From: Candidatus Poseidoniales archaeon
Lineage (GTDB): Archaea > Thermoplasmatota > Poseidoniia > Poseidoniales > Poseidoniaceae
DNA: 64,000 nt
Reading direction: 5' to 3'
Assembly: GCA_038150305.1 (NCBI GenBank)
Contig: JAYOTG010000009.1
Span: 8,479 to 72,478 of the forward strand
Under the pieces are notes generated by a model. That model had not been told where the DNA came from. It saw only the letters and a program-made list of their open reading frames with translations, and did not search any database. Made by a program: the position numbers and the translations under genes. This document shows positions 9,842-39,000 of this stretch, piece by piece (the stretch's first letter is position 1; each line of letters begins with the position of its first letter).

Positions 9842-9849
9842 GAACCGTG

Positions 9850-10863
9850 TCAGAGTCCATCCCCCATACCGGTCCGGGCACGCTCAAGGAGGTCAGAGGC
9901 CCACGGCTCTCCGCTGGCCAGAGCTCGTCGTGCGAGGAAGAAGGCCTCGGCGTGTTCGCCCCTGTTCAAGAGGGACTCGATCTTGACCATTTGCGGGTCG
10001 CGCTCATCGATCTCCTCCTCGGTTTCCACGACAACAGGAGCCTCCACCGGCGGCGCAATTCGGGTGCGCAGGTCCACCATCGCCGAGAGGAAGCGCTGCC
10101 GCGTGTCCACGTCGGGCGGTGACCACGGTTGCTGCGATGCGCCGTCAAGGCCCGCGTTCAGGCGTGCTTGGAACCGGTCCCGCACGTCCATGTGCGGGCG
10201 CAAGGTTTGGACGTGGTCGTAGCACAGCCAAGCCTCGTCGTACCGCTCACGGCGCTCATGCAGGCGACCAAGATCCAGCCACAACTCGTGGTTTTGCGGA
10301 CGGTGCGCCAAAAGATGGGTCGAGAGGTCAACGAAGAGGTCCTCGTCTTTCGCGCGAAGACGGATGAGGCGTCGGGCGAAAATCACGGAAGCGCGGGCGT
10401 CCGTGAAGTCGAGCGTACGGCAGCGTGTCGCGAAGTCCGACAGGGCTGCATCGGCGTCCTCGCTTTCGTTCAAGCGAGACCACCATGCGTCGGCATCGAG
10501 CGGGTCCTGCAAGATGGCGGCTTCCAGCAATTCTGCCGCGATCGGCAGCAGGGCCACGCCACGAAGTTGAGCGGCACGTTCGGGGTCACGGCCCAACACC
10601 GTGAACAGGTCCTCGAGCACGGCGTGGACGCCGGCTTCGTCGTTCACGCGTTGCTTGAGGTCGACCAGCAGCCGCCATGCGTCGGCCTGCGTGAAATCAT
10701 AGAGCAGGGCCTGTCGAGCATGTTGCTCTGCCCAGTCCACGTTTCCTGAGGCGCGTTCCGGGTCTCGGTCTGCCAACTTCAGAAATTTCCGAGCTTGCGC
10801 AAGGTGGCGGTCGCCAAGGTGGCGGCGCGGATGTTGCAGGCGGTCCTCAAGATCGTCCGCCAT
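9850..10863 (-). CDS. Hypothetical TPR-like repeat protein
   Basis: Helical repeats with W/Y-L-G-A spacing (ADAWRLLVDL, HELWLDLGRLHERRERYDEAWLCYDHV). Sandwiched 8-9 nt from the UbiD-like and Nudix genes. Confidence 0.55.
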   Translation of the reverse strand: MADDLEDRLQHPRRHLGDRHLAQARKFLKLADRDPERASGNVDWAEQHARQALLYDFTQADAWRLLVDLKQRVNDEAGVHAVLEDLFTVLGRDPERAAQLRGVALLPIAAELLEAAILQDPLDADAWWSRLNESEDADAALSDFATRCRTLDFTDARASVIFARRLIRLRAKDEDLFVDLSTHLLAHRPQNHELWLDLGRLHERRERYDEAWLCYDHVQTLRPHMDVRDRFQARLNAGLDGASQQPWSPPDVDTRQRFLSAMVDLRTRIAPPVEAPVVVETEEEIDERDPQMVKIESLLNRGEHAEAFFLARRALASGEPWASDLLERARTGMGDGL

Positions 10864-15979: not shown

Positions 15980-16476
15980 TCGCCATGGTGGCAGAAGCGA
16001 GCATCGTCTCGCTTCATGCGGCCCCCGAGGGCGGCGTGCCAAAGCCCGCAGTGCCGAGCCTCCACGTGACGCAGAACGGGTGCGTGGGCGACCGTCAGCG
16101 CGACCTCAAGCATCACGGCGGTCCCACGCGCGCGCTCTGCATTTGGAGCCGCGAGGTCCTTCATGCGCTTCGTGACGAAGGCCACCCGGTACGACCGGGT
16201 GACGTGGGAGAGAACGTGCTTGTGCAGGGCTTGCCCTTTTCCGAACTCGCTGCAGGGGACGTGCTCGAACTGGGTGCCGTCCACGCTCGCTTGACTGGAC
16301 CTGCTCCACCGTGCCGCACCATCGCCGCAGCCTTCACGTCAGGCACCTTCCGCAGCATTGACGCAAAACGGCACCCCGATCGGACGCGATGGTACGCAGA
16401 AATCGTGGTCGAGGGTGAGCTTCACCCAGGCGACGCCGTGGTGCTCACGAAAGCCGAGCCAGCTGGAGATCCGTGA
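15976..16476 (+). CDS. MOSC domain-containing protein
   Basis: GD-QRDLKHHGG, GENVLVQG, GDVLELG and PPCRTI (conserved Cys) motifs. GTGA overlap with the EF-2 stop. Confidence 0.7.
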   Translation: MIAMVAEASIVSLHAAPEGGVPKPAVPSLHVTQNGCVGDRQRDLKHHGGPTRALCIWSREVLHALRDEGHPVRPGDVGENVLVQGLPFSELAAGDVLELGAVHARLTGPAPPCRTIAAAFTSGTFRSIDAKRHPDRTRWYAEIVVEGELHPGDAVVLTKAEPAGDP

Positions 16477-18172
16477 ACTCACGGAGGGCCCGAAGGGCCG
16501 GGCTCGACGGTAGTCGATCGAGGCAGGCGTGTGCCGCAGCGTGATAGGACGTGGCCCGTTCCCGACCGTACGCGATGGAACCGGAGGCTTCCAGGCCCTT
16601 GTGCGCGGCTTCGATGTCTGCGGACGTGGCCTCCTCCCCCTTGCCAAGGGCCTGCAACAGGGCGTCTTTGGCAGGTCCGTCAGGCTGGTCCAGCGCGTGA
16701 ATCACCATCAGCGTCCGCTTGCCTTGGGCAACGTCTGAACCGGCTGGCTTCCCGAGCGTCGCGGTGTCGGACACCACGTCGATGAGGTCGTCCATCAACT
16801 GGAAGCACAAGCCCACGTTGAGGCCCCACTCGCGCATGCAATCGACGGTGTCCTCGTCGGCGCCCGAGAGCAAGGCGCCAAGTTCGGAACATACCTGAAA
16901 CATGACAGCAGTTTTTCCCTCGATCATTTCGATGTACCTTGGTTCCGTGACGTTGCTCTCGTGTTCGAATTCAATGTCGAGCTGCTGACCTTCCGAGACG
17001 CGACGAACCATCCAAGCGATGCGCTCGACGATGTCGGGAAGCAGGGCCATGTCGAAACCAGGTGCGTCGCACAGGTGCTCGAAGGCGATGGCCAGCATCG
17101 CGTCGCCGGCGTTGATCGCCGTGGGCATGTCATAGGCCACGTGGACCGCTGGACGCCCGCGCCGGACGGGGTCATCGTCCATGATGTCGTCATGGACGAG
17201 CGTGAAGTTGTGGATGATCTCGATGGCCGAGCCCACATCGAGCAAGCCGCTGTGGGTGTCTCCGATCGCCTTGGCCACGAGCCACGGCAAGGACGCGCGC
17301 ATGCGCTTGCCGCCTCCCTCGATTAGGTGCATCATGGCTTGACCCAAGCGCGGATGGCGGGAGGCGGTCAGACGGGATGCAATACGGGATTCGATCAGGG
17401 GCAGCACTTCCAGCACCGAGGTGCGGAGGTCCGCTCCGACTGCGCCGGGGAGCATGTGGCTGACGTCCCCGAGGTCGTGGATGTGCTCGTCGAAGAGGGC
17501 TTGGTGCTCTTCCTTGGAGGCTGCGTTCCACCATGCATCGTCCATCAGACGTGCTGCGATGCAACGGAACCACGGCGCAACGGGGTGCTCAGGGTCCTCT
17601 TCGATCAACATGGCTTCCATGTCGTCTTGACTGACCCATCGGATTTCGGCCACTTCATTGGGATTCGGTTTCACCTCGAGGTCTTTGACCCGGCCCACCA
17701 GGAGGTGGTCGACCTCGCGCTCGATCCAGGTCTCGTCTTGGCGCGCCTGGTACCGGAAACGACCGACGTAGGTCAAATCGTCCACCGACACCGATTCAAT
17801 CCCCAATTCTTGCTTCAGTTTCCGAACGGCGGCCGTTCGGACCCCCAATCCGTCTGCCTCTTCGCGTTCTTCAGGGACATCCAGGGGGTGGGAACAACAG
17901 GTGTTGGCCCAGATCCCGGGGAAGGTGATTTTGTCGTCGGCACGGCGTTGCAAAAGGAGCCTGCTGTTCTGGTCGAACAGCATCACGGAAAACGCCCGGT
18001 GATAGGCACCCGCGCCACGGTGCGCGTTGACCTTGGAGGCCCGCCCAAGCGGGCGGTCCATCTCGTCCACAAGGATGACGGCTTCAGCCATCATGTCGAC
18101 CTGCTCCGGGTCAAAACCGTCGAGTGCCTCGGCGTCGGCTTCAGCGACATCGGTCCTCATGGCGGAAGCCAT
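16445..18172 (-). CDS. Fusion protein: type-1 isopentenyl-diphosphate isomerase (N) + geranylgeranyl/polyprenyl diphosphate synthase (C)
   Basis: N-terminal half carries HRAFSVMLF, LLLQRRADDKITFPGIWANTCCSHPL, LGVRTAAVRKLKQELGI and PWFRCIA (type-1 IDI). C-terminal half carries GGKRMRA, FTLVHDDIMDDD (FARM), QLMDDLID (SARM) and GKPAGSD-GKRT. Start set at Met31 (18172) to avoid a 65-nt overlap with the IPK gene. Confidence 0.8.
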   Translation of the reverse strand: MASAMRTDVAEADAEALDGFDPEQVDMMAEAVILVDEMDRPLGRASKVNAHRGAGAYHRAFSVMLFDQNSRLLLQRRADDKITFPGIWANTCCSHPLDVPEEREEADGLGVRTAAVRKLKQELGIESVSVDDLTYVGRFRYQARQDETWIEREVDHLLVGRVKDLEVKPNPNEVAEIRWVSQDDMEAMLIEEDPEHPVAPWFRCIAARLMDDAWWNAASKEEHQALFDEHIHDLGDVSHMLPGAVGADLRTSVLEVLPLIESRIASRLTASRHPRLGQAMMHLIEGGGKRMRASLPWLVAKAIGDTHSGLLDVGSAIEIIHNFTLVHDDIMDDDPVRRGRPAVHVAYDMPTAINAGDAMLAIAFEHLCDAPGFDMALLPDIVERIAWMVRRVSEGQQLDIEFEHESNVTEPRYIEMIEGKTAVMFQVCSELGALLSGADEDTVDCMREWGLNVGLCFQLMDDLIDVVSDTATLGKPAGSDVAQGKRTLMVIHALDQPDGPAKDALLQALGKGEEATSADIEAAHKGLEASGSIAYGRERATSYHAAAHACLDRLPSSPALRALREFTDLQLARLS

Positions 18173-18197
18173 GTCGGTCGGTGTGGCCTGCGACACT

Positions 18198-19013
18198 TCA
18201 TCCCTTCTGCGCCGCAGGGAAGCGTGTTCCTCGCACAGGGCGCCCCAGCATGGCCGCCTCAAGGCGGCCTTCGACTTCGCCGTTCACGAACCACGTCTCG
18301 ATGCCGTGCCGTGCGATGCTTTTGGCGCGCTGGACCTTGAGGCCAATGCCCCCGGTCACGTCCATGTCCTCGGCGTGAACGCCCACAAATTCTGCGTCGT
18401 CGTGCCAGACCTCGATCAAATCCTCTTCCGTGGCCTCATGCGGAGGCTTCCTGAGAACCCCATCGGCCCCGCCCATGGCAAACACCACGCGCGAGACGTC
18501 GGGCAATTCAACCGCACAACGGTGCACCAGATCGTCTCCGGACAGGATGCCAAATGCTGCGGGCCCTTCGACGGGGACCACATCACCCCACGTGACAGGG
18601 ACCACGTCGCTCGGTTGAAGCGGGTGAAGGTCACCGATGAAGTTCGTTCCCAAACCGACGGCCCAACGGTGTGGAGGGTGCGTGCTGGTCGCAAGGCCAG
18701 CGTCATGCAGGGCTTGCGTCACGTGCTCGGCAAGCCGCATCATGTCCTCGCGCACCCGTTCGACGGCCTCGTCTTGGTCTGTGCAGCCGTCGTTCCCTCG
18801 TGCATCCGATCGTCCATCCTCAAGGCGCCATGCTTTGGCGCGGAGGTGGCCAAATGAGCCAGCGCCATGCACGACCAGCACCCGGACGCCCTGATGCGCT
18901 GCGGCTGCAATCTCCTTCGCCAAGCGGTTCAATCGGTCCGCATGAACGGTGGTCATACGCGACTTTTCCGTGATCAGGCCACCCCCGAGTTTCACCACAA
19001 CGGCGGGGGGCAT
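18198..19013 (-). CDS. ipk: Isopentenyl phosphate kinase (amino-acid-kinase fold)
   Basis: VVKLGGGLIT, VLVVHGAGSFGH, GDVV, ILSGDDL, DVTGGI motifs. Start at the internal ATG just before KLGGG. Confidence 0.75.
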   Translation of the reverse strand: MPPAVVVKLGGGLITEKSRMTTVHADRLNRLAKEIAAAAHQGVRVLVVHGAGSFGHLRAKAWRLEDGRSDARGNDGCTDQDEAVERVREDMMRLAEHVTQALHDAGLATSTHPPHRWAVGLGTNFIGDLHPLQPSDVVPVTWGDVVPVEGPAAFGILSGDDLVHRCAVELPDVSRVVFAMGGADGVLRKPPHEATEEDLIEVWHDDAEFVGVHAEDMDVTGGIGLKVQRAKSIARHGIETWFVNGEVEGRLEAAMLGRPVRGTRFPAAQKG

Positions 19014-19087
19014 GGTGGGTCCACGGCCCGCCGCTTCATGAGGGTGCCTCGCGAGGATTGAAGACGGACCGCACTCACAGAGCACCC

Positions 19088-19414
19088 ATGGGCGACGAAG
19101 CAACGGTGGACGTGTTCATGCGTCATCTGCAGGCTGAACTCGAAGCCACGGCGTCCATCGCTGACGCCGTTGAGCGTGAACAGCGCCGCCGGCAACTGGA
19201 AGCCGCGCTCCAAGAGGCGATGCGCTTTCTGGCCGCGTACGGCGAGCGCGTTCGTTTGGGCTTGGACCCAACCCAGGTCGTGCGCCCTCAACAGCGCACC
19301 GTCGAATCCGAGGTCCGCGAAACGATGTCGACCTTGGCGGCTGGCGTCTGCGAGACGTGCGGTGCCATGCTCGATCCTGAGCTGGACTTCTGCCCAGCCT
19401 GTGGCGCGCGGTAA
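19088..19414 (+). CDS. Hypothetical coiled-coil protein with C-terminal zinc ribbon
   Basis: CETCG-x10-CPACG at the C-terminus. Its stop codon directly abuts the convergent kptA stop. Confidence 0.45.
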   Translation: MGDEATVDVFMRHLQAELEATASIADAVEREQRRRQLEAALQEAMRFLAAYGERVRLGLDPTQVVRPQQRTVESEVRETMSTLAAGVCETCGAMLDPELDFCPACGAR

Positions 19415-20125
19415 TCACTCTTCTTCGTCCCAGCGGGCGAAGGTTTCCTGGACGATGGGGTCGTCTTCGCCAACGGGGTACAGGGCCGCAGGTGGGACCT
19501 CGTCGGTGAGGAACACGGTGGTTCCAGCACGGTAGATGGTGTGCCCGTCAGCGATGGCGCGGATGGTGTCCACTTCGATGATCGAGGGACGTCCGATGCG
19601 CACGTGCCCGGCCTCCAGGGCGTTGGCGATGGTGCGCGAGAGGTGGATGTGCTTGCGGTCGCCCGACAGGATGCCGAACTTGAGCAGGGATTCGACCTCA
19701 CTGGCTTCGCAGGGCCAATACAGCGCCTCGGGAATGTCGTCCGTGGGCAGGTCGAGTTCGATTTCGATGGAGTGGCCGTAGGTGGCGCGGATCATCTCGT
19801 TCTCCACTTGCCAGCGTCCCTTCTCGTCCGCGTTGGCGATGGCCTCGAAGTGCCATGCGCGCACCCAGTGCAGGTGGCGGCGGCTGTCGGCGATGGCCTT
19901 GGACAGTTCGCGGGTCTCGACCCAGCCATTGATGTCCATGTCGACGTTGAACTTTTCCGGAGCGTGGCGCAGCACGAGGGCCAAAATTCGGCCAACGGCG
20001 TTGGCTTCGCGGTCCGACATGATGAATTTCCCTTCCTCGTTGCAGACCGGGCAGTTCGTTCCAGAGAAATGACCGTGCTCTCGACACTGGCGCAGCATGA
20101 TTTCCCGCCCCCGCGCGTGGTTCAT
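19415..20125 (-). CDS. kptA: RNA 2'-phosphotransferase KptA/Tpt1 with N-terminal zinc knuckle
   Basis: LALVLRHAPEKF, D-NGWV, RATYGHS, HIHLS and the remaining Tpt1 pattern. N-terminal C-x2-H...CPVC. An alternative ATG exists at 20098. Confidence 0.8.
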   Translation of the reverse strand: MNHARGREIMLRQCREHGHFSGTNCPVCNEEGKFIMSDREANAVGRILALVLRHAPEKFNVDMDINGWVETRELSKAIADSRRHLHWVRAWHFEAIANADEKGRWQVENEMIRATYGHSIEIELDLPTDDIPEALYWPCEASEVESLLKFGILSGDRKHIHLSRTIANALEAGHVRIGRPSIIEVDTIRAIADGHTIYRAGTTVFLTDEVPPAALYPVGEDDPIVQETFARWDEEE

Positions 20126-20181
20126 AGCATCATCGGCCTCGGCCACCGTGATGGTCAAGTGCCGGGGGTGGATGGAGACAC

Positions 20182-21351
20182 ATGGTCGACGTCGCGATGG
20201 TCGGCGCAGGACAAACGCCCTACGGCACGCATCCAGCCGCGATGAAGGACATGTGGGCCGATGCGGTGCGCGCCTGTTTCGACACGATCGACGGTGACCT
20301 TGCCCCCGCTTCGGTGGACGAGGTCTTCCTCGGTTCGACCGCTTTTGGCGGGGGCCAGCTCGGCAACACGGCGGCCTACCTCGCCGAGCATGCAGGCATG
20401 GCCGGCGTCCCCGCCCGGCGCATTGAGAACGCCTGTGCATCCTCCGGATTTGCGCTGCGCGACGGTTGGGCGGCGATCGCCAGCGGTCGCGCAGACGTGG
20501 TCGTGGTTGGCGGCGTGGAGAAAATGAACGACCTCACGCCGGAACGGAAGCGGTACTGGCTCGGCGTGTCCGGCGACACCGAATGGGAACGTTTGGCCGG
20601 CTTGACCTTTCCTGGTACTTACGCGCTGATGGCGCGGAGGCACATGCACGAACACGGTTCAACCCACGACGATTTGGTCCACATCAGCGTCAAGAATCAC
20701 GCGCATGCCTTGGAGAACCCTGTTGCGCATCTGCGTAAGGACGTCTCCTTTGAGAAAGCCGCCGGCGGGATGGTCATCGCGGATCCCTTGACCCTGTACG
20801 ACTGCTGCCCGACCTCGGACGGTGCGGCTTGTGTGGTGCTGGCTTCTGCCGATGTGGCTCGCACATTGACGGACACACCGGTGTGGATGCGGGGCAGTGG
20901 AGCGGCCTCCGACCATCTCGCCCTGCACGACAGGCCCAGCCTCACGACCCTTGCTGCAACCCGTTCGGCTGCCTCCCAGGCCTATGCGCAGTCCGGAATC
21001 ACTGCGTCGGATCTCGACCTGGTCGAGGTGCACGATTGCTTTACCGTCGCGGAATTGTTGGCCACCGAAGACCTCGGACTGACCGAACGCGGTCAAGGCG
21101 GCGTTTTCGCTCGCGACGGTGAAGGCCGACGCAACGAAGGCCGGACCACGGTGAATGGCTCTGGCGGATTGAAGGCCAAGGGGCACCCGCTGGGTGCAAC
21201 CGGAGCCGGACAAGCGGTCGAGGTGTTCAAGCAATTGCGTGGCGACGCCGGTCCGCGTCAAGTCCGTGATGCCGAGGTCGGTCTCACGCACAACGTCGGT
21301 GGCTCAGGTGCCACCTGTGCAGTTCACGTGTTCGGGAGGTCGCTTGAATGA
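20182..21351 (+). CDS. Archaeal-type thiolase (acetyl-CoA C-acetyltransferase)
   Basis: RIENACASSG active-site Cys context, VVVGGVEKM, EVHDCFT, and C-terminal GH-LGATG and NVGGSG. Confidence 0.85.
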   Translation: MVDVAMVGAGQTPYGTHPAAMKDMWADAVRACFDTIDGDLAPASVDEVFLGSTAFGGGQLGNTAAYLAEHAGMAGVPARRIENACASSGFALRDGWAAIASGRADVVVVGGVEKMNDLTPERKRYWLGVSGDTEWERLAGLTFPGTYALMARRHMHEHGSTHDDLVHISVKNHAHALENPVAHLRKDVSFEKAAGGMVIADPLTLYDCCPTSDGAACVVLASADVARTLTDTPVWMRGSGAASDHLALHDRPSLTTLAATRSAASQAYAQSGITASDLDLVEVHDCFTVAELLATEDLGLTERGQGGVFARDGEGRRNEGRTTVNGSGGLKAKGHPLGATGAGQAVEVFKQLRGDAGPRQVRDAEVGLTHNVGGSGATCAVHVFGRSLE

Positions 21352-22166
21352 TCCTTGACGCGCGCGTGGCGGGAAACGCTACAGGCAGCGTCGATGATGG
21401 GGTCGTCGTCGCCTCCGTGTTCCATGTCGGAGACCGTCGCGTGCATGGCCCAGATGCCGATGACCTCACGATCCTCATCGATGCCCTCGAAGCTTGGCGG
21501 TACCGCGGGCATGATGGTCCTGTGGAGCTTGACCTCAACGAAGAAGAGCGACCGATCGTGGCTGCAAGCCTGCCGTGGCTGATCGTGGATGAGGGTGCAC
21601 AGTACGTGGCGCTCCGATTCCAGTGTGGTGCAGCCGTGTTGGGTCGCGATGCGAGCATCGACATTGCTGCGATCTCCGTTGCTGCCGAACTTCGCATCGC
21701 GGTCGAGGCCGACGCCCATGAAGCCATCACCGCCGCATGGTCCACGGAGCTGGCAGCATCCAACGTCTCTCAAGGCGCCTACGTTTCCGGTCAGGTGCAC
21801 GACTTGGGCCTCAATGCCCGGTTGGGCATGCAAGCCCAAGCCGGGCCGGTTTGGCCTCCGCGTGGGTCCCTCGGCGATGGCGGGTTGCCGGAGCAGGGTG
21901 CTTGCCTGTCCATGACCGCACGTGTGGTCTCATGGACGCGCCTCATCGCGGCGGGATGCCCCTCCGAGTTTGCCATTCGGGCTCCGGCCCTTGGCGGCCT
22001 CACGTCGATGATCCTCTCGTTCGAGGAGGGGCCCTCTGGCGTGTTCCTCCATGTGGACGGTCATGCAAACGACGTGAGCATCGACGATGTCGCGCAGCTT
22101 GTGGTGCGGCGCGTCTACGCACAGGATGGCGTGCTCCGTTATGGGCGCAAGGCGATTCGCGCCTGA
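21348..22166 (+). CDS. DUF35/OB-fold-like thiolase-associated protein, atypical (long N-terminal extension, no zinc-ribbon cysteines)
   Basis: ATGA overlap with the thiolase stop. The C-terminal ~95 aa (ARVVSWTRL...FAIRAPALGGLTSMILSFEEGPSGVFLHVDG...VVRRVY) look like the DUF35 OB-fold. The N-terminal ~170 aa are not recognised. Confidence 0.45.
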   Translation: MILDARVAGNATGSVDDGVVVASVFHVGDRRVHGPDADDLTILIDALEAWRYRGHDGPVELDLNEEERPIVAASLPWLIVDEGAQYVALRFQCGAAVLGRDASIDIAAISVAAELRIAVEADAHEAITAAWSTELAASNVSQGAYVSGQVHDLGLNARLGMQAQAGPVWPPRGSLGDGGLPEQGACLSMTARVVSWTRLIAAGCPSEFAIRAPALGGLTSMILSFEEGPSGVFLHVDGHANDVSIDDVAQLVVRRVYAQDGVLRYGRKAIRA

Positions 22167-22207
22167 CCATGGACACCTTGAAGTCCGGTCTCGGTTCATC
22201 GTGAAGC

Positions 22208-23221
22208 ATGGCTGGATACAATCCCCGCCGTGGTCGACGCGAAGCAGCAGACAATCTCGCCGTCGACGAGGAGGGGGATTGCCCACGCTGCGGTGGGGAC
22301 GCGCAGCCTTCGACGATGTCTGGTTACCTCGCTTGCTCAAAGTGCAGTTACGAATGGGCGGATCCAAACCACGTGGAACAAAGGGCGGGTCCAACACGTG
22401 ACGACCACCATTACAACGCCGGCTTGGTCGACCAATTCAAGCAAGACCTCCAATCGGGGGAACTGCGCGGCATGCTTGGGATCGACAAGGGCCTCTCGGG
22501 TGAGCAGGAAGCCAGCCTCAAGCGGTTGGAAGACAAGTGGATGAGCGGCATGCAGGGTCACTTCAACGCCGCTGCCGAGGAGCGAAAGCCGTTGATGATC
22601 AGTTTCGATGACGACGACAACATCGTGTCCACTCACGTCGCCGCCTTCCATATCCTGACCAACGATTTCGACGGAGGGGAAGAACTCCGCTTGGAGTATC
22701 CCGGCTACGGCACGGAATTCTACGCCTACAACGAATCCAGCCCAACAGGATGGAAGCGTGGCCGCACCAAAGAGGACACCGCTCGCTCGATCACGAACAC
22801 CATCAACCGCCATTCACGCTTGGTGTATGCGAACCTCGAAGGCAGCAGCATTCAGCTGGAGTTGAGGGAAGAGAGCCTCAAGGCGAGCGCCCTCGTGGTG
22901 TTTGCTGACGATCCCGGTGGCCAGGACATCGTCGCCGAAAAGGGCGGCATTCGGCTCGACCACCGGGAAATTCAGGTCATTGACGACTACAAGAGCGTGG
23001 TTGAACTCGTGCTTGAAGACGGCATCATCTCTCCCTCCGAAGACCAACTGCTCTGGGCGATGCGCCAGCAACTTGGCATCGACGATCACCACCACGTGTC
23101 CATCGTCATGCAGATGTTTGGCGATCAAGCTCAGAAAGAATGCACGGGCTGCTCGGGCATGGCCGAGCTTTACCCCGAGCATGCGGCATGGTATTGCCAC
23201 ACCTGTGAAGCGTGGTGCTGA
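22208..23221 (+). CDS. Hypothetical protein with N- and C-terminal zinc ribbons
   Basis: CPRCG-x15-CSKC near the N-terminus and CTGC-x13-CHTC at the C-terminus. Acidic central region. Lies immediately upstream of the actin-like gene. Confidence 0.55.
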   Translation: MAGYNPRRGRREAADNLAVDEEGDCPRCGGDAQPSTMSGYLACSKCSYEWADPNHVEQRAGPTRDDHHYNAGLVDQFKQDLQSGELRGMLGIDKGLSGEQEASLKRLEDKWMSGMQGHFNAAAEERKPLMISFDDDDNIVSTHVAAFHILTNDFDGGEELRLEYPGYGTEFYAYNESSPTGWKRGRTKEDTARSITNTINRHSRLVYANLEGSSIQLELREESLKASALVVFADDPGGQDIVAEKGGIRLDHREIQVIDDYKSVVELVLEDGIISPSEDQLLWAMRQQLGIDDHHHVSIVMQMFGDQAQKECTGCSGMAELYPEHAAWYCHTCEAWC

Positions 23222-23272
23222 CCTCAAATCAGCCAAGGGATGGTTCATAAGCGAAACCACGCTCGTGGGCCC

Positions 23273-24298
23273 ATGGCCAAAGAGACGCTTTACATTGGAA
23301 TCGACCTCGGAACCTTCCGTTCCGTCATGGTGTCCTCCGCTTCCCACGAAGTGGAAGAGTTGACCGTCATTGGAACCCCCAAGGACCCCGTCGCCCGCAA
23401 CTTCCTGAAGCGCGACGTGCTCTTCGGTGAGGAGGCGCTCAAGAACCGTTTGGCGCTGAACCTCTACCGTCCTCTCGAACTTGGTGTCATCAAGGACACC
23501 CCCGAGGACCGGCAGTACATCGCCCACTTCATCACCCACCTCATCGGCCTGTCCGACCCCGAGGACTACGACCGCGTGGTCGCCGTCATCGGTGCCCCGG
23601 CCGAAGCGAGCCACGTCGACAAGACGGCCATCTTCGACGCTGCTGCAGGCTCCGTGAACGCCGCCATGATCATCTCCGAACCCTTTGCTGTGGCCTACGC
23701 CCTCGACATGTTGGAGCACACCCTGGTCATCGACATCGGTGCGGGTACGACCGACCTGTGCCGCGTCTACGGAACCATTCCTGGCCCCGGAGACCAGATG
23801 CACACGGGCTACGCTGGCGACTACGTCGACAGCCAGATCATCAAGGAAGTCCAAGCCAAGTACAACGGCGCCCAGGTCACCAAGGACATGGCACGCCGCT
23901 GGAAGGAACAGCACTCCTTCGTGTCCACCTCGCCGCCTGAGGACCCCATCATGGTGGACTTCTCCATCGAAGGCAAGGCCATGACCCTCGACATCACCGA
24001 CTGCGTTCAGCGCGCGTGCGAGTCCATCGTCGACCCCATCGTCGAGAACGTCAAGAGGCTCATTTCCGAGTCCAACCCGGAGTTCCACGACCAATTCCGT
24101 CGCAACATGGTGCTCGCCGGTGGCGGTTCTGGCATCCGTGGCCTCGGCGCCATGATTGAGCGTCGTCTCTCCGACATGGGTGACGTCAACGTCCACGTCG
24201 TCGACGACCCTGTTCGCTTGGGTGCCATGGGCGGTCTGCGCTTGTCCATGGAAGTCCCCGAGGACATGTGGAAGAACCTCACCCTCGCGTCCCGCTGA
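23273..24298 (+). CDS. Actin-fold ATPase, MamK-like (MreB/ParM superfamily)
   Basis: IGIDLGT (phosphate 1), VIGAPAEAS, SEPFAVAYALD, VIDIGAGTTDLC (phosphate 2), GTIPGPGDQ, KEQHSFV and LAGGGSGIRGL (adenosine). Colinear with my memory of Magnetospirillum MamK. Confidence 0.75.
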   Translation: MAKETLYIGIDLGTFRSVMVSSASHEVEELTVIGTPKDPVARNFLKRDVLFGEEALKNRLALNLYRPLELGVIKDTPEDRQYIAHFITHLIGLSDPEDYDRVVAVIGAPAEASHVDKTAIFDAAAGSVNAAMIISEPFAVAYALDMLEHTLVIDIGAGTTDLCRVYGTIPGPGDQMHTGYAGDYVDSQIIKEVQAKYNGAQVTKDMARRWKEQHSFVSTSPPEDPIMVDFSIEGKAMTLDITDCVQRACESIVDPIVENVKRLISESNPEFHDQFRRNMVLAGGGSGIRGLGAMIERRLSDMGDVNVHVVDDPVRLGAMGGLRLSMEVPEDMWKNLTLASR

Positions 24299-24359
24299 GC
24301 GGATTTTGGGACGTCCAGTGCGACTAGGCCCCCGTCCAGGAGCCTCGGCAACAGGCCGT

Positions 24360-25052
24360 TTACGACGGTAGTTCTCGGACCTCGGCGTCCTTGTCCAGCC
24401 GCATGACCTCGCCAATAAGGTCGGCTTTTCGTGCCGTGGGCACCTCGACGACCGCGACCCAAGCCCCGTCGCTCAACCATTCCTCCCGCTTGAGGTCTGA
24501 ACGCAGCATCTGGTGCGCGCGTCCGTAGGCGCCGCCGTTGACCTTGAAGGCCAACTTGATTCGCTCAAACGAAAGGGGAAGAAGCGGCTTCAGCACGTTG
24601 ATGGCGTCCTTGACTTGGGCCTCAAGGCGCTTGAAGGGATCCACGGAGAAGCGGCTTTCCTCCAACGCAAGTTCCAGACGTGCCCTCGGATGGGGCGACT
24701 TCGTGCGCGGGTCCACGGCTTCGCTGTGAATGTGGTGGAGGATGCGCTGGCGCATCGCTTCGACGCGAGCCTTCCGTTGTGCCGTGGTCAACTGGATGCT
24801 GCCACGTTCGAGGATGGTTCGTGTCGCTTCGGCGACGTCCTCGCTGCCGAAGGTGGACACGAGGTCTTCCACCGCGGGCCGCTCGCCCTGTCGGGCGTCG
24901 TGAAAGACGTCTTCGACGGCCATGAAATCGTCGAGGTTGACCGACGTGGGGTCTTCTCGAAAAGCCTCGACCATGTCCGGGTCAAGCAGCACCTCGTATC
25001 GCTTGCCGCCGTACTCCCAGCGCGCGACCACCGCGTCGTCGAGGGAGACCAT
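24360..25052 (-). CDS. sdo1: Ribosome maturation protein Sdo1/SBDS
   Basis: The MVSLDDAVVARWEYGGKRYEVLLDPD start is typical of archaeal SBDS. Located downstream of psmA, as in the exosome superoperon. Confidence 0.85.
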   Translation of the reverse strand: MVSLDDAVVARWEYGGKRYEVLLDPDMVEAFREDPTSVNLDDFMAVEDVFHDARQGERPAVEDLVSTFGSEDVAEATRTILERGSIQLTTAQRKARVEAMRQRILHHIHSEAVDPRTKSPHPRARLELALEESRFSVDPFKRLEAQVKDAINVLKPLLPLSFERIKLAFKVNGGAYGRAHQMLRSDLKREEWLSDGAWVAVVEVPTARKADLIGEVMRLDKDAEVRELPS

Positions 25053-32433: not shown

Positions 32434-35400
32434 TCATCGCCACTCGAGTGGTTCGCTTGGCAACGCATTGTTCAACGGCGGTGGCAGGTCGGTCATGCCA
32501 GGAACTTCGTGTCCCTGTGCCGCGGGGGTATTGCTGACTGCATCCGGGGTCGGGTCGTACGCCATGGACGGTTCCTGAGCCATGGTTGCGGGCTCGAAGA
32601 GGTCTGGCATGCGCTTCTCGTCCCCGAGTTCCCCCCACGGGTCAACGGACTGTGCACCACCGGGGCCTCGGCGGAGCATGGTCAAGAGCAGGACGATGAC
32701 CAAGCCGAGGACGGCGACGGCCGCTCCGTAGGTCACCATGCTGTCGTTGACGCCCGCGACGAGGTCTGCATTGTCGCCCACGCCATCACCGTCTGAGTCT
32801 TCGCTCTCGTCGGGGTCTTCCGGGAACGCGTCGTCTTCGTTGGGGACCCCGTCGCCGTCCATGTCAAGTGGGTCATAGGTCGTTGAACAAGCCAGCGTGT
32901 GACGCTCAGCCTCACGGTCGTCGATGTCGCCGTCGCCGTCTCGGTCGATGGCCTCCAGATCAATCTCGTTCAGGTAGTCCACCGTTTCCAAATCCTCGAG
33001 CGCGATGGCATCGGCCTCGTCGGCTTGTTCCCAAATGAAGAGGAATTCTTGTGCGCAGGAGCACAAATCGGCTTCCAGTTCGGCCATTTGGAGGCGCTCG
33101 TCTTGGTTGCGATCGAGGTCTTCACCCGGCGTTCCCGTGTCGGGATGCGGACGGTGCTCGTCGAGGCTGACCATGCCGTCTCCGTTCATGTCGAGGTCAC
33201 TGAACCACTCGATGGTCCGCTCTTCGCAGCCTTGAGGTTCGAATGGTTCGTCGTTGTTCACTTCATCGTCGTCGTCCACGGGCGGAAAATCGGCCTCAAC
33301 CCACGTCGCCATGATGCCGAATGCACTCAGGTCTTCTACCACCTCAACGGTGACGTCAAAGCGGCCGTTGGCGGCGATGTCCATGTACCAGAACCAATTG
33401 GCGCCGTCGCCCTCGATCCACGTGGCTTCGCCCCACTGGCGTCCACGAGGCCCTTCCTCGAAGACCAGGTCCCAGTCGTAGGGCTCCGCTTCGCCGTCGA
33501 GTTCGATGGCCCCACCTTCGCCCCATGTCGTGACCTCAAGCGGAGAGGCGGGTTCCTCGAGGATGCCGAAGAATTCCAACACCGTGCCTTCCTCTGCTTC
33601 GATGCCCACGATGGCCTCTCCGTTGAACAACTGGATGGGTTCACCGTCCCAATCCCAGACGTAACGGTCTGCAAACTCCGCAAGGATGGAGGTGCCGCTG
33701 AACACCCGGTCGGTGTGCACGAGGATCATCCACGTTCCCGGGGTGGGGTCGTTGAACGCGACCATGTCGTTCGAGCCAGGCGACGTGCTTCGGTGGTCGT
33801 AGACCGTTTGGGTCGGCGTGGATGCGTACGCGAGGTGAAGGTCGGCTTCGCCGACACCGTCATCCAAGCTGACTTCCAGCCGTTCGGTGCCCTCAGGCAC
33901 CTCGATGGAGAAGTATTGGCTGAGGCCGTCGTAGCCGGAAAAGGGGCCATACGGAACGCCTGCGGTCAGGGCAATGGCGTCGGAGGCCTCGCCGTTGGTC
34001 GGCATTGGTGTCAGGTCGGCGACGATGCTGAAATCGAAGGCCCGCCCCCATGTGTACGCCGTCACGTAGTAGGTTCCGGGTTCAACGTTGTAGAGGTGAA
34101 CCTCCTCGTCGTTTCCAGGACCCATCGACCAATCTTCGTACGCTTCGACGTTCACGTCTTCCTCACCGAGGAAACCGGGGGCTCCGATGATGTCCCAGTC
34201 GTCCCACTCGCTCCATTGCCCGAAGGGGTCCGGTGGGCCCCCGTAGGAGATGGCGAGTTCGACGTTGCCGTCGCCGCCGTACGTTTCCACGGCGAGGTCG
34301 GCCAGCGGCTCTGTGACGTTGACGTAATACTGGATCGTGTCGCCGAACTCATTCCCGCGTTGGCTTTGCAGGTCTTGATTGGCGACCGGAATGCCGTGCT
34401 TGAGCTCAATCATGTCCTCCAAGGTGGGCGGTGCTTCAGCAACGTCCCACTCCGCCCACAGGCTGAATTCTTGGAGATCGGCGTTGGCGTTCAGGGCGAA
34501 CCAGTGCACGCCCGCATCAGGCCAGCTGTACGAGGTGAAGACGCCGCCCCAACCCCAGTTCTGGACCTCATCCATGTGCGACCAAGCCGAAGGCACGCGG
34601 TTGATGTCGTGGTAGAGGTTGAACTCTGCATCGCCTTCTTCCTTCCCTTCACCGGTTGACCATGCGAAGGCTTGGACCGTCATCGAGCGGGTGTATTCAG
34701 GGAGTTCGGCAAAGAAGAGCAGCGTGTCGCCGGCGCTCACGTCGTCAATGGCGAGTTCATCGCCGTTCTCAAGTTCGATGGCCTGAGCCACAATTGAGCC
34801 GTCGGGCATCACCCACGCCGCGCCATGGATGGTGCCGTTCCTGTTGGCGTTGTCCATGGTCAGGTCTCCCTCGCCTTCGCCGAAGGTCCACGCAGAGAGT
34901 GGGCTCTCGGCTTGGGTGAGGCTGTGGTTACCGCTCGTGGACGTGACGCGGAGATCCTCAGAACTGATGCTGACGTGGTCGATCATGCCTTCGAAGTGGT
35001 AGCGGTCTGCGCCTGCGCCGTGGCGTCCAATCACCAGGTTTTCACAGGCAAGACCTGCATCGTAACAGTCGTTGGAGCCGAAGTCACCGGCGGGGATCTC
35101 GGCTTGTGTGGCGTCAAACGAGCCGATAGGCGCACCGTTGAGGAAGAAGGTGCCACCCGTGGATGCGTTCACGGCGACGGCCACGGTCGACCACGTGTCC
35201 GGACTCAGCGTCATGTTGGCTTCGCTCAGGGCGTTCTTGGACAGGCTGTATTCTGAGGAATACCCAAGCCGTCCGTCGTCCAGGTACAGGCCATAACCGT
35301 GGTCGCCGTACATCACCACAGTGTGAATGCCGTCGAGATCTGTGGGATAGACCCGCGCTTCGATGGTCAATTCACCCTCTGTGGAGGGGGCGCGCAGGGA

Positions 35401-35985
35401 CGTGTCATCGGCCGTGATGACGTGGTCGTCCTCACCGTCGAAGCGCAAGGCGAAATCCGCGCCCGGGCCAAGCTCCACAACGCCGTAGACCGGGAAGTAT
35501 TGCGGGTCGTTCTCCAAGTCGTTCCAATCCCCGGGTTGGATGGAACCCATGTTGGGTCCTGTGATGTGAACGTAGTCCTCTTCATCGGTCATGCTCGGTT
35601 GATCCGTGCCCCACTGGCGGTGGATGTACGGCGTCCCGTCGTGCCAGCGAAAGACGCCTTCTTCGGCCGCATCGTTGAGGCCGGTCCACAGATGGCGCGT
35701 GACGTTTCCGTCGTTGCCCCACGTTTCGTGGAGCCACGTATTCTCGGCTTCATCGTCCACCGTGACGAGGAAGCCTTCGAGGCCGCGAGCAGCCTGCGCC
35801 GCTTCCGTCCACGAGGAGGCAGAAAGCAAGTGATAGGTGTGGTTGTTCGCGGGATTGACCTTGGTGTCCAGCACCTCGATGTCCAAGGATGACTCCGCGC
35901 CAGCAGTCGGGCTCAAGGTGGCGAGGGTGGTGGAGAGCACCAAGAGGGTCACGAGGGCGAGCGCACGGGGGCGTCCGTTCTGCAT
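32434..35985 (-). CDS. Large secreted type-I membrane protein: signal peptide, cysteine-less C-type-lectin-like domain, LamG/ConA-like domain, EF-hand/TSP3-type Ca-binding repeats, TM helix, ~95-aa Pro-rich cytoplasmic tail
   Basis: Signal peptide MQNGRPRALALVTLLVLSTTLATLSPTAGA. The CTLD pattern is SWTEAAQAARG...LWTGLNDAAEEGVFRWHDGTP...GDWNDL. LamG-like LRFDGEDDHV...TIEARVYP. DMNGDGMVSLDE, DRDGDGDIDD and DMDGDGVPNEDD...DSDGDGVGDNAD repeats. TM helix AAVAVLGLVIVLLLTML. Start at Met49 of the ORF, consistent with the Lhr stop at 36039. Confidence 0.8.
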   Translation of the reverse strand: MQNGRPRALALVTLLVLSTTLATLSPTAGAESSLDIEVLDTKVNPANNHTYHLLSASSWTEAAQAARGLEGFLVTVDDEAENTWLHETWGNDGNVTRHLWTGLNDAAEEGVFRWHDGTPYIHRQWGTDQPSMTDEEDYVHITGPNMGSIQPGDWNDLENDPQYFPVYGVVELGPGADFALRFDGEDDHVITADDTSLRAPSTEGELTIEARVYPTDLDGIHTVVMYGDHGYGLYLDDGRLGYSSEYSLSKNALSEANMTLSPDTWSTVAVAVNASTGGTFFLNGAPIGSFDATQAEIPAGDFGSNDCYDAGLACENLVIGRHGAGADRYHFEGMIDHVSISSEDLRVTSTSGNHSLTQAESPLSAWTFGEGEGDLTMDNANRNGTIHGAAWVMPDGSIVAQAIELENGDELAIDDVSAGDTLLFFAELPEYTRSMTVQAFAWSTGEGKEEGDAEFNLYHDINRVPSAWSHMDEVQNWGWGGVFTSYSWPDAGVHWFALNANADLQEFSLWAEWDVAEAPPTLEDMIELKHGIPVANQDLQSQRGNEFGDTIQYYVNVTEPLADLAVETYGGDGNVELAISYGGPPDPFGQWSEWDDWDIIGAPGFLGEEDVNVEAYEDWSMGPGNDEEVHLYNVEPGTYYVTAYTWGRAFDFSIVADLTPMPTNGEASDAIALTAGVPYGPFSGYDGLSQYFSIEVPEGTERLEVSLDDGVGEADLHLAYASTPTQTVYDHRSTSPGSNDMVAFNDPTPGTWMILVHTDRVFSGTSILAEFADRYVWDWDGEPIQLFNGEAIVGIEAEEGTVLEFFGILEEPASPLEVTTWGEGGAIELDGEAEPYDWDLVFEEGPRGRQWGEATWIEGDGANWFWYMDIAANGRFDVTVEVVEDLSAFGIMATWVEADFPPVDDDDEVNNDEPFEPQGCEERTIEWFSDLDMNGDGMVSLDEHRPHPDTGTPGEDLDRNQDERLQMAELEADLCSCAQEFLFIWEQADEADAIALEDLETVDYLNEIDLEAIDRDGDGDIDDREAERHTLACSTTYDPLDMDGDGVPNEDDAFPEDPDESEDSDGDGVGDNADLVAGVNDSMVTYGAAVAVLGLVIVLLLTMLRRGPGGAQSVDPWGELGDEKRMPDLFEPATMAQEPSMAYDPTPDAVSNTPAAQGHEVPGMTDLPPPLNNALPSEPLEWR

Positions 35986-36038
35986 GGTAGGAAGACGGCC
36001 CCGCGTCTTCAAAACCTGTTGGTGCGTTGATTTGACCT

Positions 36039-39000
36039 TCAGGAACTGCTCAACCGTCGACCGCCAATCCTGACCTCGGACGTGAGCGGCATCTGGTGCT
36101 CCCACGCGAATTCCTTGACGATGCGCCACGCGTCTTCCTTTCCTTCGTAGTCCGTGACTTCGATGACGCGGTTCCTGGTGTTCGCCTTGAAGGCGGCTGC
36201 TGGTTCGCCGTTCTTGAAGACCAGATAGGCGCTCCCGAAGCCGAACCTTTCCTTGAGCGTGCCAGCGAAATACGGCGCGATGGGGTCAGAGGGCGGAAGC
36301 ACGAAATCGCGCATCGGTTGGAGTTCCTTGGCTTCGGCGAGGAGGTCTTTTCGCCCCCAACAGACTTCGTGCAGGTCATCGATCAGGAAGCCCTTGATGA
36401 GGGTCTCATCTTCCTCAAACTCCGTCAGGATGGCCTTGACTTCTTCTGGCTTGAAGTGGCTGCCGGCCAAGGACAAGAGTTGCTTGATCGTCATCACGGG
36501 GAAATCGGCCACAAGAGAGCGCAGATACTCCTTGCGCAAGACGGACCGTTCAAGCGAGGCATCCACGGTGACCGTTCTGAATCCACCTCGGAAATCTTGG
36601 ACGATGTGACCGGACCTGATGAGGGGCTGGACCAATTTTCTGAACTCTGATTGGCTCAGCGCATAGCGTTCTTTGAACAACTCATGGTCCGAATGGGTTG
36701 AGAAGAATTCCAACACGTCAGCGAGGTCTTCGTCAGGTTCGATGCCTCGAATGGCCAAGAGGGTCTGGAAGTGTTCGTAGGAAGCCCAGGATTGGTGGCC
36801 TCGGAGGTTCACGCCCTGGTGCAGCCGGTTCGCACTCGCCATGCTCTTCAGGTCCACGCGGTAGACTTCGGCACGGCCGCGGAGGGCGAAGTCGTCACGG
36901 ACTTCTCGTATTCTCTTGAGGGCAAGGAACTCGTTCTCCAGCCGTGCCGATTGGTGCAGGTGGTGCTTGTGGAAGAGGGCACGGTCAGCGAGGTTTCGTG
37001 GCTGGGTTTCGACGATGCCTCCACGGATCATGCGTTCCCCGGCGAGTTTGAACCCAATGTTCGCCAACGCATCACGCCAGACCTGCTCCACTTCGTTGAT
37101 CGGTTGACCGTTGATGCCGCTCAGGACGGCGACGTCCACGAGTTGTTCGGCGTGGTTTTGCAACAACACATCGAAGGCTTCGCAGAACTCCTCGAGGTAA
37201 GCGGCGGGAATCTGGATGTCCTTGACTTCGAGGTAGTCGTTCACCTTGAACATCAGGACCTTCCCCACCGGGTCGATGCCCTTGAACACGGGCAGGTACC
37301 AGCCGCGGTCCAGCATGGCGCGGACCTCCCAGATGAAACGGGAGACGTAAGGATCGGACTGCGTCAAAATGCGCATGGATCGGTCTTCTCGCCGTGCACG
37401 GCGGAAGGTCCCGACTTCTTCTGGAGCGCAATAGAAATCCTCGGGTTCTGGCACCAGCGTGGTGACGCGGCTGATGCGTCCAGCCTGTTCCAGCGCCTTG
37501 AGCGCGATGACCAATTCTTCGTAGGCACGGCTGACGTAGAAGCGAAGCGTGTTGGCCTTGATGGGCCCAATGCGATGGATGACCTCGCACAAAGCGTCCT
37601 CGAAGGAGAGCCCGTCATAGACCTCGTGAACGCGGTGGTAGAAGGACAAGCGTCGACGGCGTCCAGGGACTTCTTCGAACTGTTTGGCCACGAGGAGTTG
37701 ACGTTCGAGGTTGGCCAAGCCGTTCTTGACGTCACGCTGGAGTTGCTTGTGCTCGTCGCCCTTTGGATACATGGCCACGATTTCGGAGCGCTGCGGTTCT
37801 TCGCCGGGCAAAATCCGGTCAAGCAAGTCAGCCTCCATGGCGCCGATGTACGGCTCGGGTTTGAGTCCGAGCAGCATGGGGAGGTTCCTGCGTGTCGTGT
37901 ACCCCTGACGGTTGTGCAGCAGCCGCCCGTTGACGATGTCACGGTCCAGCTGGAGGTCTTTCCAATCGCTGAACCTGAAATCGTTGATTCGGTAGAGCAA
38001 TTCCTGCTGCTTCTGGAAAAGCAAGTGCTTGTCGAAGGCCTGGTCCACGTCGTCGTACATGGTGAACGACTTGTCAAGGATCATGTTCTGGATGGAGCGG
38101 TACTCGACGACCTCTTCCTCGCCGCCCGTGATGCGGTGCTCGTCGACCTTGAGGATGAACTCAGCCTCTTCAGTTTGCGTGAAGAAGCCGATGCTGATGA
38201 CGTTTCGAGTCTCCAATTGGTGGATGGTGCGCTCGACCATCGACCGGGGGAAGGGCAAACGTGCTTCGAGGTGGTCAGCGGTTTGCGGGCCTTCTGAGCC
38301 GAGCATCTCGATGAGTTTCACGCGCAGGGCTTCCTGCGGATCGCCCAATTCCATGTCCGTCCATGACGTGACTTTGGTTCCGCTGAAGGCCGTGGCCATG
38401 CGGTAGGTCACCCCTGCGGTGTGCAACGTGAGGAGGTCCTCCACGTCCCGTCCACCGTTGGCGGCAAGGCACCCGAGGGTACCGTGGATTTCGCCCATGT
38501 AGGTGCTGAACCACTTTCCGTCGAGTTCCTCCATGCCGGTGCCTTCGATCTTCGTGATGAGCCCGGCGGTGCACAAGTCCTCGACCCAACCGCGGATCAC
38601 TTCGTGGTCAATGCCGCCGAGTTTGTCTCGATAGAGCGGGTTGCCAAACGACCGGTCCAGCCCTCCGCCGTGCTCCATGAGCGCCAACAGTGAGTCCGCG
38701 TCTTTCGGGACAGGGACTTTGTCGGCGTAGTAGTCGCTGATTTGCTCGTTGGTCATCTCTGTGGCCAGGGAGCGGCGCCCAAGCAGGCGCTCGAGGATGG
38801 CCGGGTCAATGTCCTTGACGAGGAAGGCCCTCGTGCGCATGGACATCAGGTCCTCGAACGCGGACATGTACAGCGACATGCCGATGCGGCTGGGCAAGGT
38901 CGTCCTGATGTGCACGATCCGTGCTTGTCCCTCGCGGCATGAGGTCAGGAATTGCTCCAAGCCTCCGAGATCGATGTCGCCGTAGAGGATCTCGTTCTTT

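Follow-up and report, generated by a model that had tools for sequence, protein, structure and literature searches.

A MamK-family actin beside a double zinc-ribbon protein in the Poseidoniales: what looks like an undescribed archaeal cytoskeletal module

Two adjacent genes on a contig from a Candidatus Poseidoniales archaeon (GenBank assembly GCA_038150305.1, contig JAYOTG010000009.1) raise the question of what kind of actin these archaea encode and whether the protein encoded beside it is its partner. The genes lie in a stretch of 64,000 nt, here called the window, and coordinates are window positions unless another locus is named. The source lineage is Poseidoniaceae (Marine Group IIa, MGIIa; Thermoplasmatota), as judged from the labels of relatives and a species-level GTDB scan. 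The Poseidoniales (Marine Group II, MGII) count among the most abundant surface-ocean archaea and can dominate the archaeal plankton; to our knowledge no member has been cultured, and the cell biology of the group is a blank. The known archaeal cytoskeletons comprise crenactin with the arcadins, Ta0583, MreB in some methanogens, salactin, volactin, and the Asgard actins. The two genes are as follows.

22208 to 23221, forward strand: the ZnR gene, an open reading frame (ORF) for a 337-aa double zinc-ribbon protein

23273 to 24298, forward strand: the actin-1 gene for a 341-aa MamK-family actin-like ATPase, defined by its ORF, profile matches, and structural model

By sequence and by predicted structure, actin-1 is a peripheral member of the MamK family and not an MreB. 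The NCBIfam MamK model (NF040964) matches it at 358.2 bits (E 4e-107), which is the top model by a wide margin and falls just below the cut-off of 400 bits. The BeeR model (NF053558) gives 210.6 bits against a cut-off of 530, the MreB models TIGR00904, NF010539, and NF010540 give 85, 95, and 60 bits against cut-offs of 366, 293, and 515, and the salactin equivalog model (NF053533) gives 64.1 bits against a cut-off of 400; none of these is reached. The best Pfam match is the broad MreB_Mbl model, which is passed at 95 bits. Pfam Salactin (PF25229) is also passed, at 55.7 bits against a cut-off of 27.1 and far under the MreB_Mbl and MamK scores, and Volactin (PF25216) is not reached (30.3 bits, cut-off 35). 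A phmmer search of PDB sequences returned MamK (5LJW, 5JYG, and 5LJV) at E 2e-74, BeeR (8R2N) at 2e-44, and T. maritima MreB (1JCE) at 2e-15. The BLASTP identities are 38% to MamK, 31% to BeeR, and 29% to MreB. The AlphaFold2 (AF2) model of actin-1 has a predicted template modeling score of 0.79. When this model was searched with Foldseek, the MamK structures 5LJW and 5LJV occupied ranks 1–3 with template modeling scores (TM-scores) of 0.81–0.84, followed by BeeR at 0.74 and MreB at about 0.7.

An earlier note on this DNA, made from the letters alone, had proposed a full actin motif set, colinearity with MamK, and a series of strings that MreB lacks, and all three proposals hold. The motifs IGIDLGT (aa 8–14), VIGAPAEAS (from aa 105), VIDIGAGTTD (152), and LAGGGSGIRGL (281) are present in 23273–24298, and the MamK alignment spans residues 2–336 of 341 with only one 1-residue and one 2-residue gap. 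The strings DIGAGTTDxC..GTxPGPxDQ, SEPFxVxYxLD, KEQxSFV, and GGGSxIRGL are shared with MamK (5JYG/5LJW) and absent from MreB (1JCE) in the HMMER alignments. The phosphate-1 motif and the putative ATPase residues are located as follows.

23297 to 23314, forward strand: phosphate-1 motif GIDLGT, aa 9–14, from the MamK alignment

23678 to 23734, forward strand: E136 (in SEPF) and D154 (in VIDIGAGTTD), aligned to MamK positions 143 and 161 (5JYG/5LJW)

We take positions 143 and 161 to be the ATPase residues of MamK. E136 and D154 are invariant in both Poseidoniales paralogs of this type, and the same is found for G9, D11, L12, G13, and T14 and for GGGSGIRGL. The nucleotide-binding motifs of actin-1 are intact in its sequence, and they are conserved in the paralog also. 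Polymerization of actin-1 with ATP is very probable.

The second paralog and the other close relatives were collected in an exhaustive HMMER search with actin-1 against 1.84 billion cluster representatives, which gave 483 matches at E ≤ 1e-10. The nearest non-self relatives are 44–50% identical to actin-1, nearer than Magnetospirillum MamK, and form two groups. The first is actin-2 (the P0247 family), a second Poseidoniales MamK-type paralog that is 45% identical to actin-1 and 94–100% conserved among most of its own listed matches. The contig lists retrieved for actin-1 and actin-2 do not overlap, and the co-presence of both in one genome is read from the names of the metagenome-assembled genomes (MAGs) alone. 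The second group consists of fusion proteins of 520–1230 aa (P0244–P0259) with an N-terminal coiled coil that carries the conserved motif EKxKFxEWxKxxG, a long low-complexity linker rich in P, K, S, and E, and a C-terminal MamK-like actin. We know of no earlier description of such coiled-coil-fused actins. One of them (locus L089, 8001–10364) is probably bacterial because it is found on a contig of 41% G+C between genes for UvrC and an M23 peptidase.

A neighbor-joining (NJ) tree was built from 89 sequences and 332 columns with 100 bootstraps. In it the actin-1 sequences form one clade (100%) whose sister is actin-2 (88%); support for joining these two to the fusion clade is weak (57%). Magnetosomal MamK (MamK_5JYG) and BeeR each fall in a clade of their own, MreB lies far out as the outgroup, and the deep nodes are unsupported. 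The peripheral groups score 330–425 bits on the MamK model, including 330 for actin-2 and 368 for actin-1 of Marine Group IIb (MGIIb), and a representative of the MamK clade scores 508. The most economical history would be a single transfer, in one direction or the other, between bacteria and the ancestor of the Poseidoniales, followed by duplication.

Public databases name the homologues of actin-1 "rod shape-determining protein MreB" (NCBI and JGI) or "hypothetical". These names, together with the top Pfam position of MreB_Mbl, speak for a plain archaeal MreB that maintains cell shape at the membrane, and a cell-shape role is conceivable for any prokaryotic actin. Against this stand the MreB profile scores, which lie far below their cut-offs, and the distant position of MreB in the tree. 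The earlier note had considered a place inside ordinary MreB or Hsp70-like clades; what was found is 358 bits for MamK against 85–95 for MreB, and E 2e-74 against 2e-15, which marks actin-1 as MamK-type and as neither MreB nor Hsp70. No mreC, mreD, rodZ-like, or cell-wall synthesis genes are adjacent to actin-1. As a matter of family membership, ordinary MreB is refuted by the profile scores, the PDB matches, and the tree, and as an account of the locus an MreB role in cell shape is very improbable.

The closest characterized relative, MamK, raises the alternative of true MamK function in the positioning of a magnetosome-like organelle, for which nothing speaks beyond homology. Actin-1 matches MamK in length and in its nucleotide-binding and catalytic motifs, and like MamK it has no extra domains. 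It differs in falling below the 400-bit cut-off, in lying outside the magnetosomal MamK clade of the NJ tree, in its archaeal host, and in its surroundings, where a zinc-ribbon protein takes the place of MamJ, MamY, or McaAB. No magnetosome (mam-type) genes were found among the neighbors scanned, as the earlier note had also reported, and MamK-like actins are widespread in organisms that are not magnetotactic. A magnetosome-like role is the least credible of the alternatives and is extremely improbable.

Other characterized relatives were compared in the same way. BeeR of the Verrucomicrobiota, which forms three-stranded tubular filaments (PDB 8R2N), is likewise a MamK relative from non-magnetotactic hosts and is the second-best PDB and NCBIfam match. 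Its hallmark is a disordered N-terminal extension of 30–50 aa (PMC11929497). Actin-1 lacks this extension, beginning 4 residues ahead of its first strand, and belongs to a separate clade. Salactin and volactin are archaeal actin homologues as well, and actin-1 is much nearer to MamK than to either. Judged from sequence, MamK-type actins are not unique to the Poseidoniales among archaea, for ANME-2/Methanosarcinales also encode one (L112, 5001–6077; 371 bits on the MamK model). The earlier placement of the locus in an archaeal genome is borne out by its assignment to the Poseidoniaceae. The accompanying list of characterized archaeal actins, which named no MamK-type filament, needs correction in view of the ANME-2 protein and the published finding that MamK is the closest subfamily to haloarchaeal salactin (PMC10746226).

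The extent of the actin-1 gene bears on its spacing from ZnR. The longest version of the actin ORF begins at 23240, and all 80 relatives examined align from the MAKE start at 23273. We place the real start at 23273, because the relatives begin with MA(K/E)E and because a conserved TATA-like box lies inside the longer ORF. With this start the gap between ZnR and actin-1 is 51 nt, and the short same-strand gap after a 337-aa protein that had been described from the letters is confirmed. The spacers that flank and separate the pair measure 41, 51, and 61 nt. A 533-aa antisense ORF at 22814–24415 was set aside as the usual artefact of a genome with 60–65% G+C.

The linkage of the two genes was examined in a scan with one genome per GTDB species, in which 170 genomes encode a close relative of actin-1; 80 loci were kept. 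Nearly all are labeled Poseidoniaceae, Poseidonia, Poseidoniales, or "Methanobacteriota/Euryarchaeota archaeon" and derive from marine MAGs, and in two of them (L001 and L065) actin-1 is 99% identical to the window copy. Seven window proteins were compared with the 80 loci using tblastn. In all 79 loci that could be assessed, ZnR is the gene directly upstream of actin-1 and has the same orientation, with gaps of 51–158 nt; the remaining locus (L037) begins at the actin. Three further loci, one of them named Thalassarchaeaceae (MGIIb), carry divergent actins (76–79% identical) with a gene for 336–342 aa directly upstream. Alignment of two of these three proteins with ZnR gives 52–55% identity and shows all eight cysteines conserved. 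The linkage that the earlier note had asked about is therefore conserved in related genomes of both MGIIa and MGIIb.

The flanks of the pair are less constant. In the window its neighbors are thiolase, SBDS, proteasome alpha, and Tpt1. Thiolase and the ORF that follows it are missing in about 20 loci and inverted in L078, and the ZnR–actin-1 junction is kept. SBDS and proteasome alpha are found downstream of actin-1 solely in the subclade of the window; in other clades this place is taken by a transmembrane (TM)/zinc-ribbon protein with DFP, by transaldolase, or by a gene for about 240 aa on the plus strand. The pair had earlier been described as lying just downstream of lipid-precursor genes. 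The thiolase is recognized by Pfam, the "DUF35-like" assignment of 21348–22166 finds no Pfam match at E ≤ 1, and the association with lipid genes lacks specificity, since loci that have lost or inverted the thiolase block still keep the pair.

Conservation is unequal across the neighborhood. The median identities over the same loci are 91% for actin-1 (range 88–99), 67% for ZnR, 72% for thiolase, and 73% for Tpt1. By this measure no other gene of the neighborhood comes near the constraint on actin-1, which is under strong purifying selection. Since it is about 90% identical where its neighbors are about 70% identical, actin-1 very probably has a central role in these cells. Constraint of this kind would be as expected for polymers with several binding surfaces.

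The spacer before each gene contains a promoter-like element, and the one before actin-1 is located as follows.

23244 to 23250, forward strand: TTCATAA box, candidate archaeal TATA element of actin-1, 29 nt upstream of the ATG

TTCATAA or TTGATAA is present 29–44 nt before the actin ATG in 79 of 79 loci, and the rest of the spacer is divergent. A GGCGAG-like stretch often follows the TTCATAA box near the actin ATG. In most loci TTCATAGAAAG is found about 30 nt before the ZnR ATG; in the GC-rich subclade of the window this element is degenerate and reads CCTTGAAGTCC (22176–22186). The boxes before actin-1 and ZnR probably represent the Poseidoniales TATA-box consensus, and the two adjacent genes are probably transcribed as separate units. 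No RNA families or tRNAs were found around the pair, and in the whole 64-kb window there are no tRNA genes and no Rfam families at the gathering threshold.

The principal alternative to a working pair is built on these observations. It holds that actin-1 forms a filament and that ZnR works elsewhere, for instance as a zinc-ribbon protein that binds nucleic acid or acts in regulation, with inherited synteny alone keeping the genes together. A promoter-like box for each gene would fit this, as would the restriction of the arrangement to a single order, where Tpt1 and the isoprenoid genes stay near too. The N-terminal ribbon of ZnR is faintly eL43-like, JGI gives some homologues the corresponding names, and no fusion or domain evidence joins ZnR to actin. 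What speaks against synteny alone is that the ZnR–actin junction is the sole one in the neighborhood that is never broken, in 79 MGIIa and 3 MGIIb loci with both flanks varying, and that the orientation is constant and the gap always short. We consider it a serious competitor that is on balance unlikely.

ZnR itself is predicted to be cytoplasmic. It is acidic throughout (pI 4.76) and has no TM or hydrophobic segment. A search of 5.8 billion proteins gave 303 homologues; the best 120 of the 303 are 62–83% identical and about 336 aa long, and among these 120 all named sources are Poseidoniales, Euryarchaeota, or Thermoplasmatota MAGs. No Pfam or NCBIfam family reaches threshold for ZnR. The earlier description of a protein with a CxxC...CxxC ribbon at each end and an acidic central domain of no assignable family agrees with these results. 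The AF2 model was made with 56 sequences and has a mean predicted local distance difference test score (pLDDT) of 75. Its parts are listed here.

22280 to 22345, forward strand: N-terminal Cys4 zinc ribbon (C25, C28, C43, C46), with Cys invariant or near-invariant; a three-strand ribbon, pLDDT about 80

22505 to 22624, forward strand: conserved segment, aa 100–139, mean identity 0.85, pLDDT 36–63

22625 to 23128, forward strand: alpha/beta domain, aa 140–307, confidently folded, pLDDT about 85–94

23141 to 23206, forward strand: C-terminal Cys4 zinc ribbon (C312, C315, C330, C333), with invariant Cys; strands at 309–329 in the model

A basic tail, RRGRREA, precedes the N-terminal ribbon. Helices at 67–115 are modeled with modest confidence, and residues 116–139 form a disordered stretch. 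Residues 100–139 are the best conserved part of the protein, with a mean identity of 0.85 against 0.44–0.75 in the remaining segments, and contain the invariant residues R126, P128, L129, F133, D134, D137, and N138 within RKPLMISFDDDDN. Because this segment is invariant and yet unfolded on its own, as expected for a motif that folds on a partner, it is a candidate actin-binding element.

The ribbons are clear from the Cys4 spacing and the ribbon fold despite sub-threshold Pfam scores. Zn_ribbon_IS1595 scores 18–22 bits on the N-terminal ribbon against a threshold of 25.4, A2L_zn_ribbon scores 16.6 bits on the C-terminal ribbon against 22.9, and the TFIIB zinc ribbon scores 13.8 bits against 29. 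Identification of ZnR as ribosomal eL43/L37Ae was rejected: Ribosomal_L37ae gives 12.4 bits where 21.9 are needed, matches aa 24–52 only, and describes proteins of about 90 aa against the 337 aa of ZnR. The JGI label L37AE/L43A on some homologues is a mislabel. A profile search of PDB sequences aligned aa 8–58 with the eL43/L37Ae ribbon at E 2.5e-3, a weak match that was judged not meaningful. A TerB-like Pfam hint at aa 264–295, seen in a sub-fragment scan at E ≤ 1, was dropped (E 0.14). Foldseek of the ZnR model against the PDB gave nothing at E < 1e-3 (TM-score ≤ 0.23), and a BFVD search gave phage tail proteins, matched only in part over about 110 columns (TM-score ≤ 0.26), also judged not meaningful.

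The relatives of actin-1 were examined for partners of their own, and the locus of actin-2 is arranged as follows.

8001 to 9008 and 9101 to 10381 of loci L084–L088 (outside the window): actin-2 and its partner

Actin-2 is always followed by a gene for a 426-aa coiled-coil protein with an acidic tail, which has no Pfam match and is unrelated to ZnR. On the other side lies a 950-aa S8 peptidase, with PcrB and a rhodopsin gene near. Actin-2 thus resembles actin-1 as a sister clade with extreme conservation and a fixed unannotated neighbor; it differs in that its partner is downstream and coiled-coil and in its separate locus. The ANME-2 actin is followed after 26 nt on the same strand by a gene for a protein of at least 1940 aa without Pfam domains (L112, 6103–11077). 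In L113 a MamK-like actin 46% identical to actin-1 (1890–2936) lies inside a chemotaxis operon with the order CheA/CheW, CheC, CheD, actin, a 291-aa unknown protein, and CheC. No homology was detected among ZnR, the actin-2 partner, and the N-termini of the fusion proteins. Because private adjacent or fused partners recur in the clade, ZnR is the obvious partner candidate for actin-1. By analogy, a filament with a lineage-specific adaptor would be a reasonable general reading for the clade.

We therefore favor the reading in which actin-1 is a filament-forming MamK-family actin and ZnR its lineage-specific adaptor or regulator, and we place it midway between doubtful and probable. Actin-1 would be an ATP-dependent filament former and a vertically inherited core gene of the Poseidoniales, derived most likely from one acquisition from bacteria and a subsequent duplication in the ancestor of the order. 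ZnR would bind the actin filament or monomer through the invariant unstructured residues 100–139. Its ribbons and folded domain would tie the filament to nucleic acid or another protein, or would control nucleation or capping. Direct interaction of ZnR with actin-1, and with it the role of ZnR as a dedicated adaptor or regulator, is a finely balanced proposition. The parallels would be ParR for ParM, AlfB for AlfA, arcadin-2 for crenactin, and MamJ or McaAB for MamK.

In ParM/ParR, AlfA/AlfB, crenactin/arcadin-2, and MamK/MamJ, an actin-like ATPase likewise stands beside a lineage-specific partner that is small and non-enzymatic. No search run showed homology of ZnR to the ParR, AlfB, arcadin-2, or MamJ adaptors. 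The present pair also differs from such pairs in that the ZnR gene is upstream and probably transcribed separately, and in the lack of centromere repeats.

Several results weigh against the reading of a filament with its adaptor. Co-transcription is not established, because each gene seems to own a TATA-like box. No recognizable actin-binding domain was found in ZnR by Pfam/NCBIfam, profile, or Foldseek searches. The N-termini of the fusion relatives were considered as Rosetta-stone evidence and rejected, since they are not ZnR-like (hhalign probability 0.1, with 0.4 against the actin-2 partner). Subdomain IB (aa 32–75) of the actin-1 model is of low confidence. The sampling covers a single order with much conserved synteny, in which Tpt1 is nearly always near, and adjacency of this kind is weaker evidence than adjacency across phyla.

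The same layout could also be read as chromosomal DNA segregation of the ParMRC type (type II), with ZnR as DNA-binding adaptor and actin-1 as pushing filament. Salactin is reported to be linked to DNA partitioning. The two-gene arrangement of actin and adaptor, the zinc ribbons and N-terminal basic tail of ZnR, and the existence in salactin of an archaeal actin closest to MamK (PMC10746226) would be in keeping with segregation. The surrounding DNA is not: in 21800–24700 no repeat family exceeds two chance-level copies, so that no iterated centromere-like repeats occur in or beside the pair, and the spacers, at 41, 51, and 61 nt, are too short. No ParM-type model is among the NCBIfam matches listed for actin-1 at E ≤ 0.01, the gene order is reversed relative to parMR, and DNA binding by ZnR is pure conjecture. 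Segregation is improbable as the function of the pair.

The reading of actin-1 with ZnR as its adaptor can be extended to a larger and more tentative proposal. The two MamK-type paralogs, both of bacterial origin and each paired with a dedicated partner, might constitute an actin cytoskeleton specific to the Poseidoniales. Within it, actin-1 and ZnR, the latter with a new fold, might form a hitherto undescribed cytomotive or positioning machine in which ZnR grips the filament by its disordered acidic motif and a cargo, such as the nucleoid, the ribosome, or an envelope component, by its ribbons. This proposal is less likely than not, and we give it less confidence than the simpler one.

Other genes of the window were characterized along with the pair. 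The ORF at 21348–22166 (forward strand) overlaps the thiolase stop codon, and only its C-terminal region of about 150 aa is conserved in relatives (34–50% identity); the ORF may therefore overstate the length of the true gene. Isoprenoid genes lie just upstream (16445–19103, reverse strand) in a block that is syntenic in MGIIa and MGIIb. Within it, the gene at the same position as the 605-aa ORF 16445–18262 encodes 566–572 aa in L081 and L082 and has NUDIX and polyprenyl-synthase domains. The next gene has an amino-acid-kinase fold and is likely an isopentenyl phosphate kinase, as assigned from the same two loci. The gene at 19058–19414 (forward strand) encodes 118 aa with a small C-terminal zinc ribbon (DUF7575/DZR hints), and Tpt1 lies at 19415–20440 (reverse strand). 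Farther away are a 1762-aa Lhr-type helicase (36039–41327, reverse strand; DEAD, Helicase_C, WH_Lhr, and DEAD_assoc) with about 900 extra C-terminal residues and, beside it, a 1231-aa protein that combines a C-type lectin domain with two PPC domains (32434–36129, reverse strand).

The TM/zinc-ribbon protein has about 200 aa, with multiple TM segments and a C-terminal CxxC..CxxC ribbon. It is encoded at 3630–4214 (forward strand), divergent to DFP/CoaBC at about 2358–3500 (reverse strand). In about 29 MGIIa loci, and also in those of MGIIb, actin-1 has this block as its immediate downstream neighbor; in the lineage of the window the block lies about 19 kb off. The TM/zinc-ribbon protein, whose gene is convergent to that of actin-1 in many loci, was rejected as a third component, as it travels with the DFP gene rather than with the actin.

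In the full-text literature searched, which includes the main MGII genomics papers and the papers on BeeR, salactin, and MamK diversity and leaves most subscription journals outside, no description of a MamK-type actin or a cytoskeletal gene in MGII was found, and for MGII the words MamK, MreB, actin, and cytoskeleton do not come up. Among 199 families specific to the Poseidoniales that are listed in a study of archaeal lineage-specific proteins, the present one is not discussed. On the comparisons made here, the pair looks like an undescribed archaeal cytoskeletal module that combines a MamK-family actin, a novel partner, and a new host lineage. For hundreds of MAGs, the finding corrects the widespread annotation "rod shape-determining protein MreB". 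ZnR, which has no known fold or family, offers a concrete, clonable handle, and together with actin-1 it could reveal the role of a MamK-type filament outside magnetosomes. The two proteins could also tell whether an archaeal cytoskeleton arose through recruitment and duplication of a bacterial actin.

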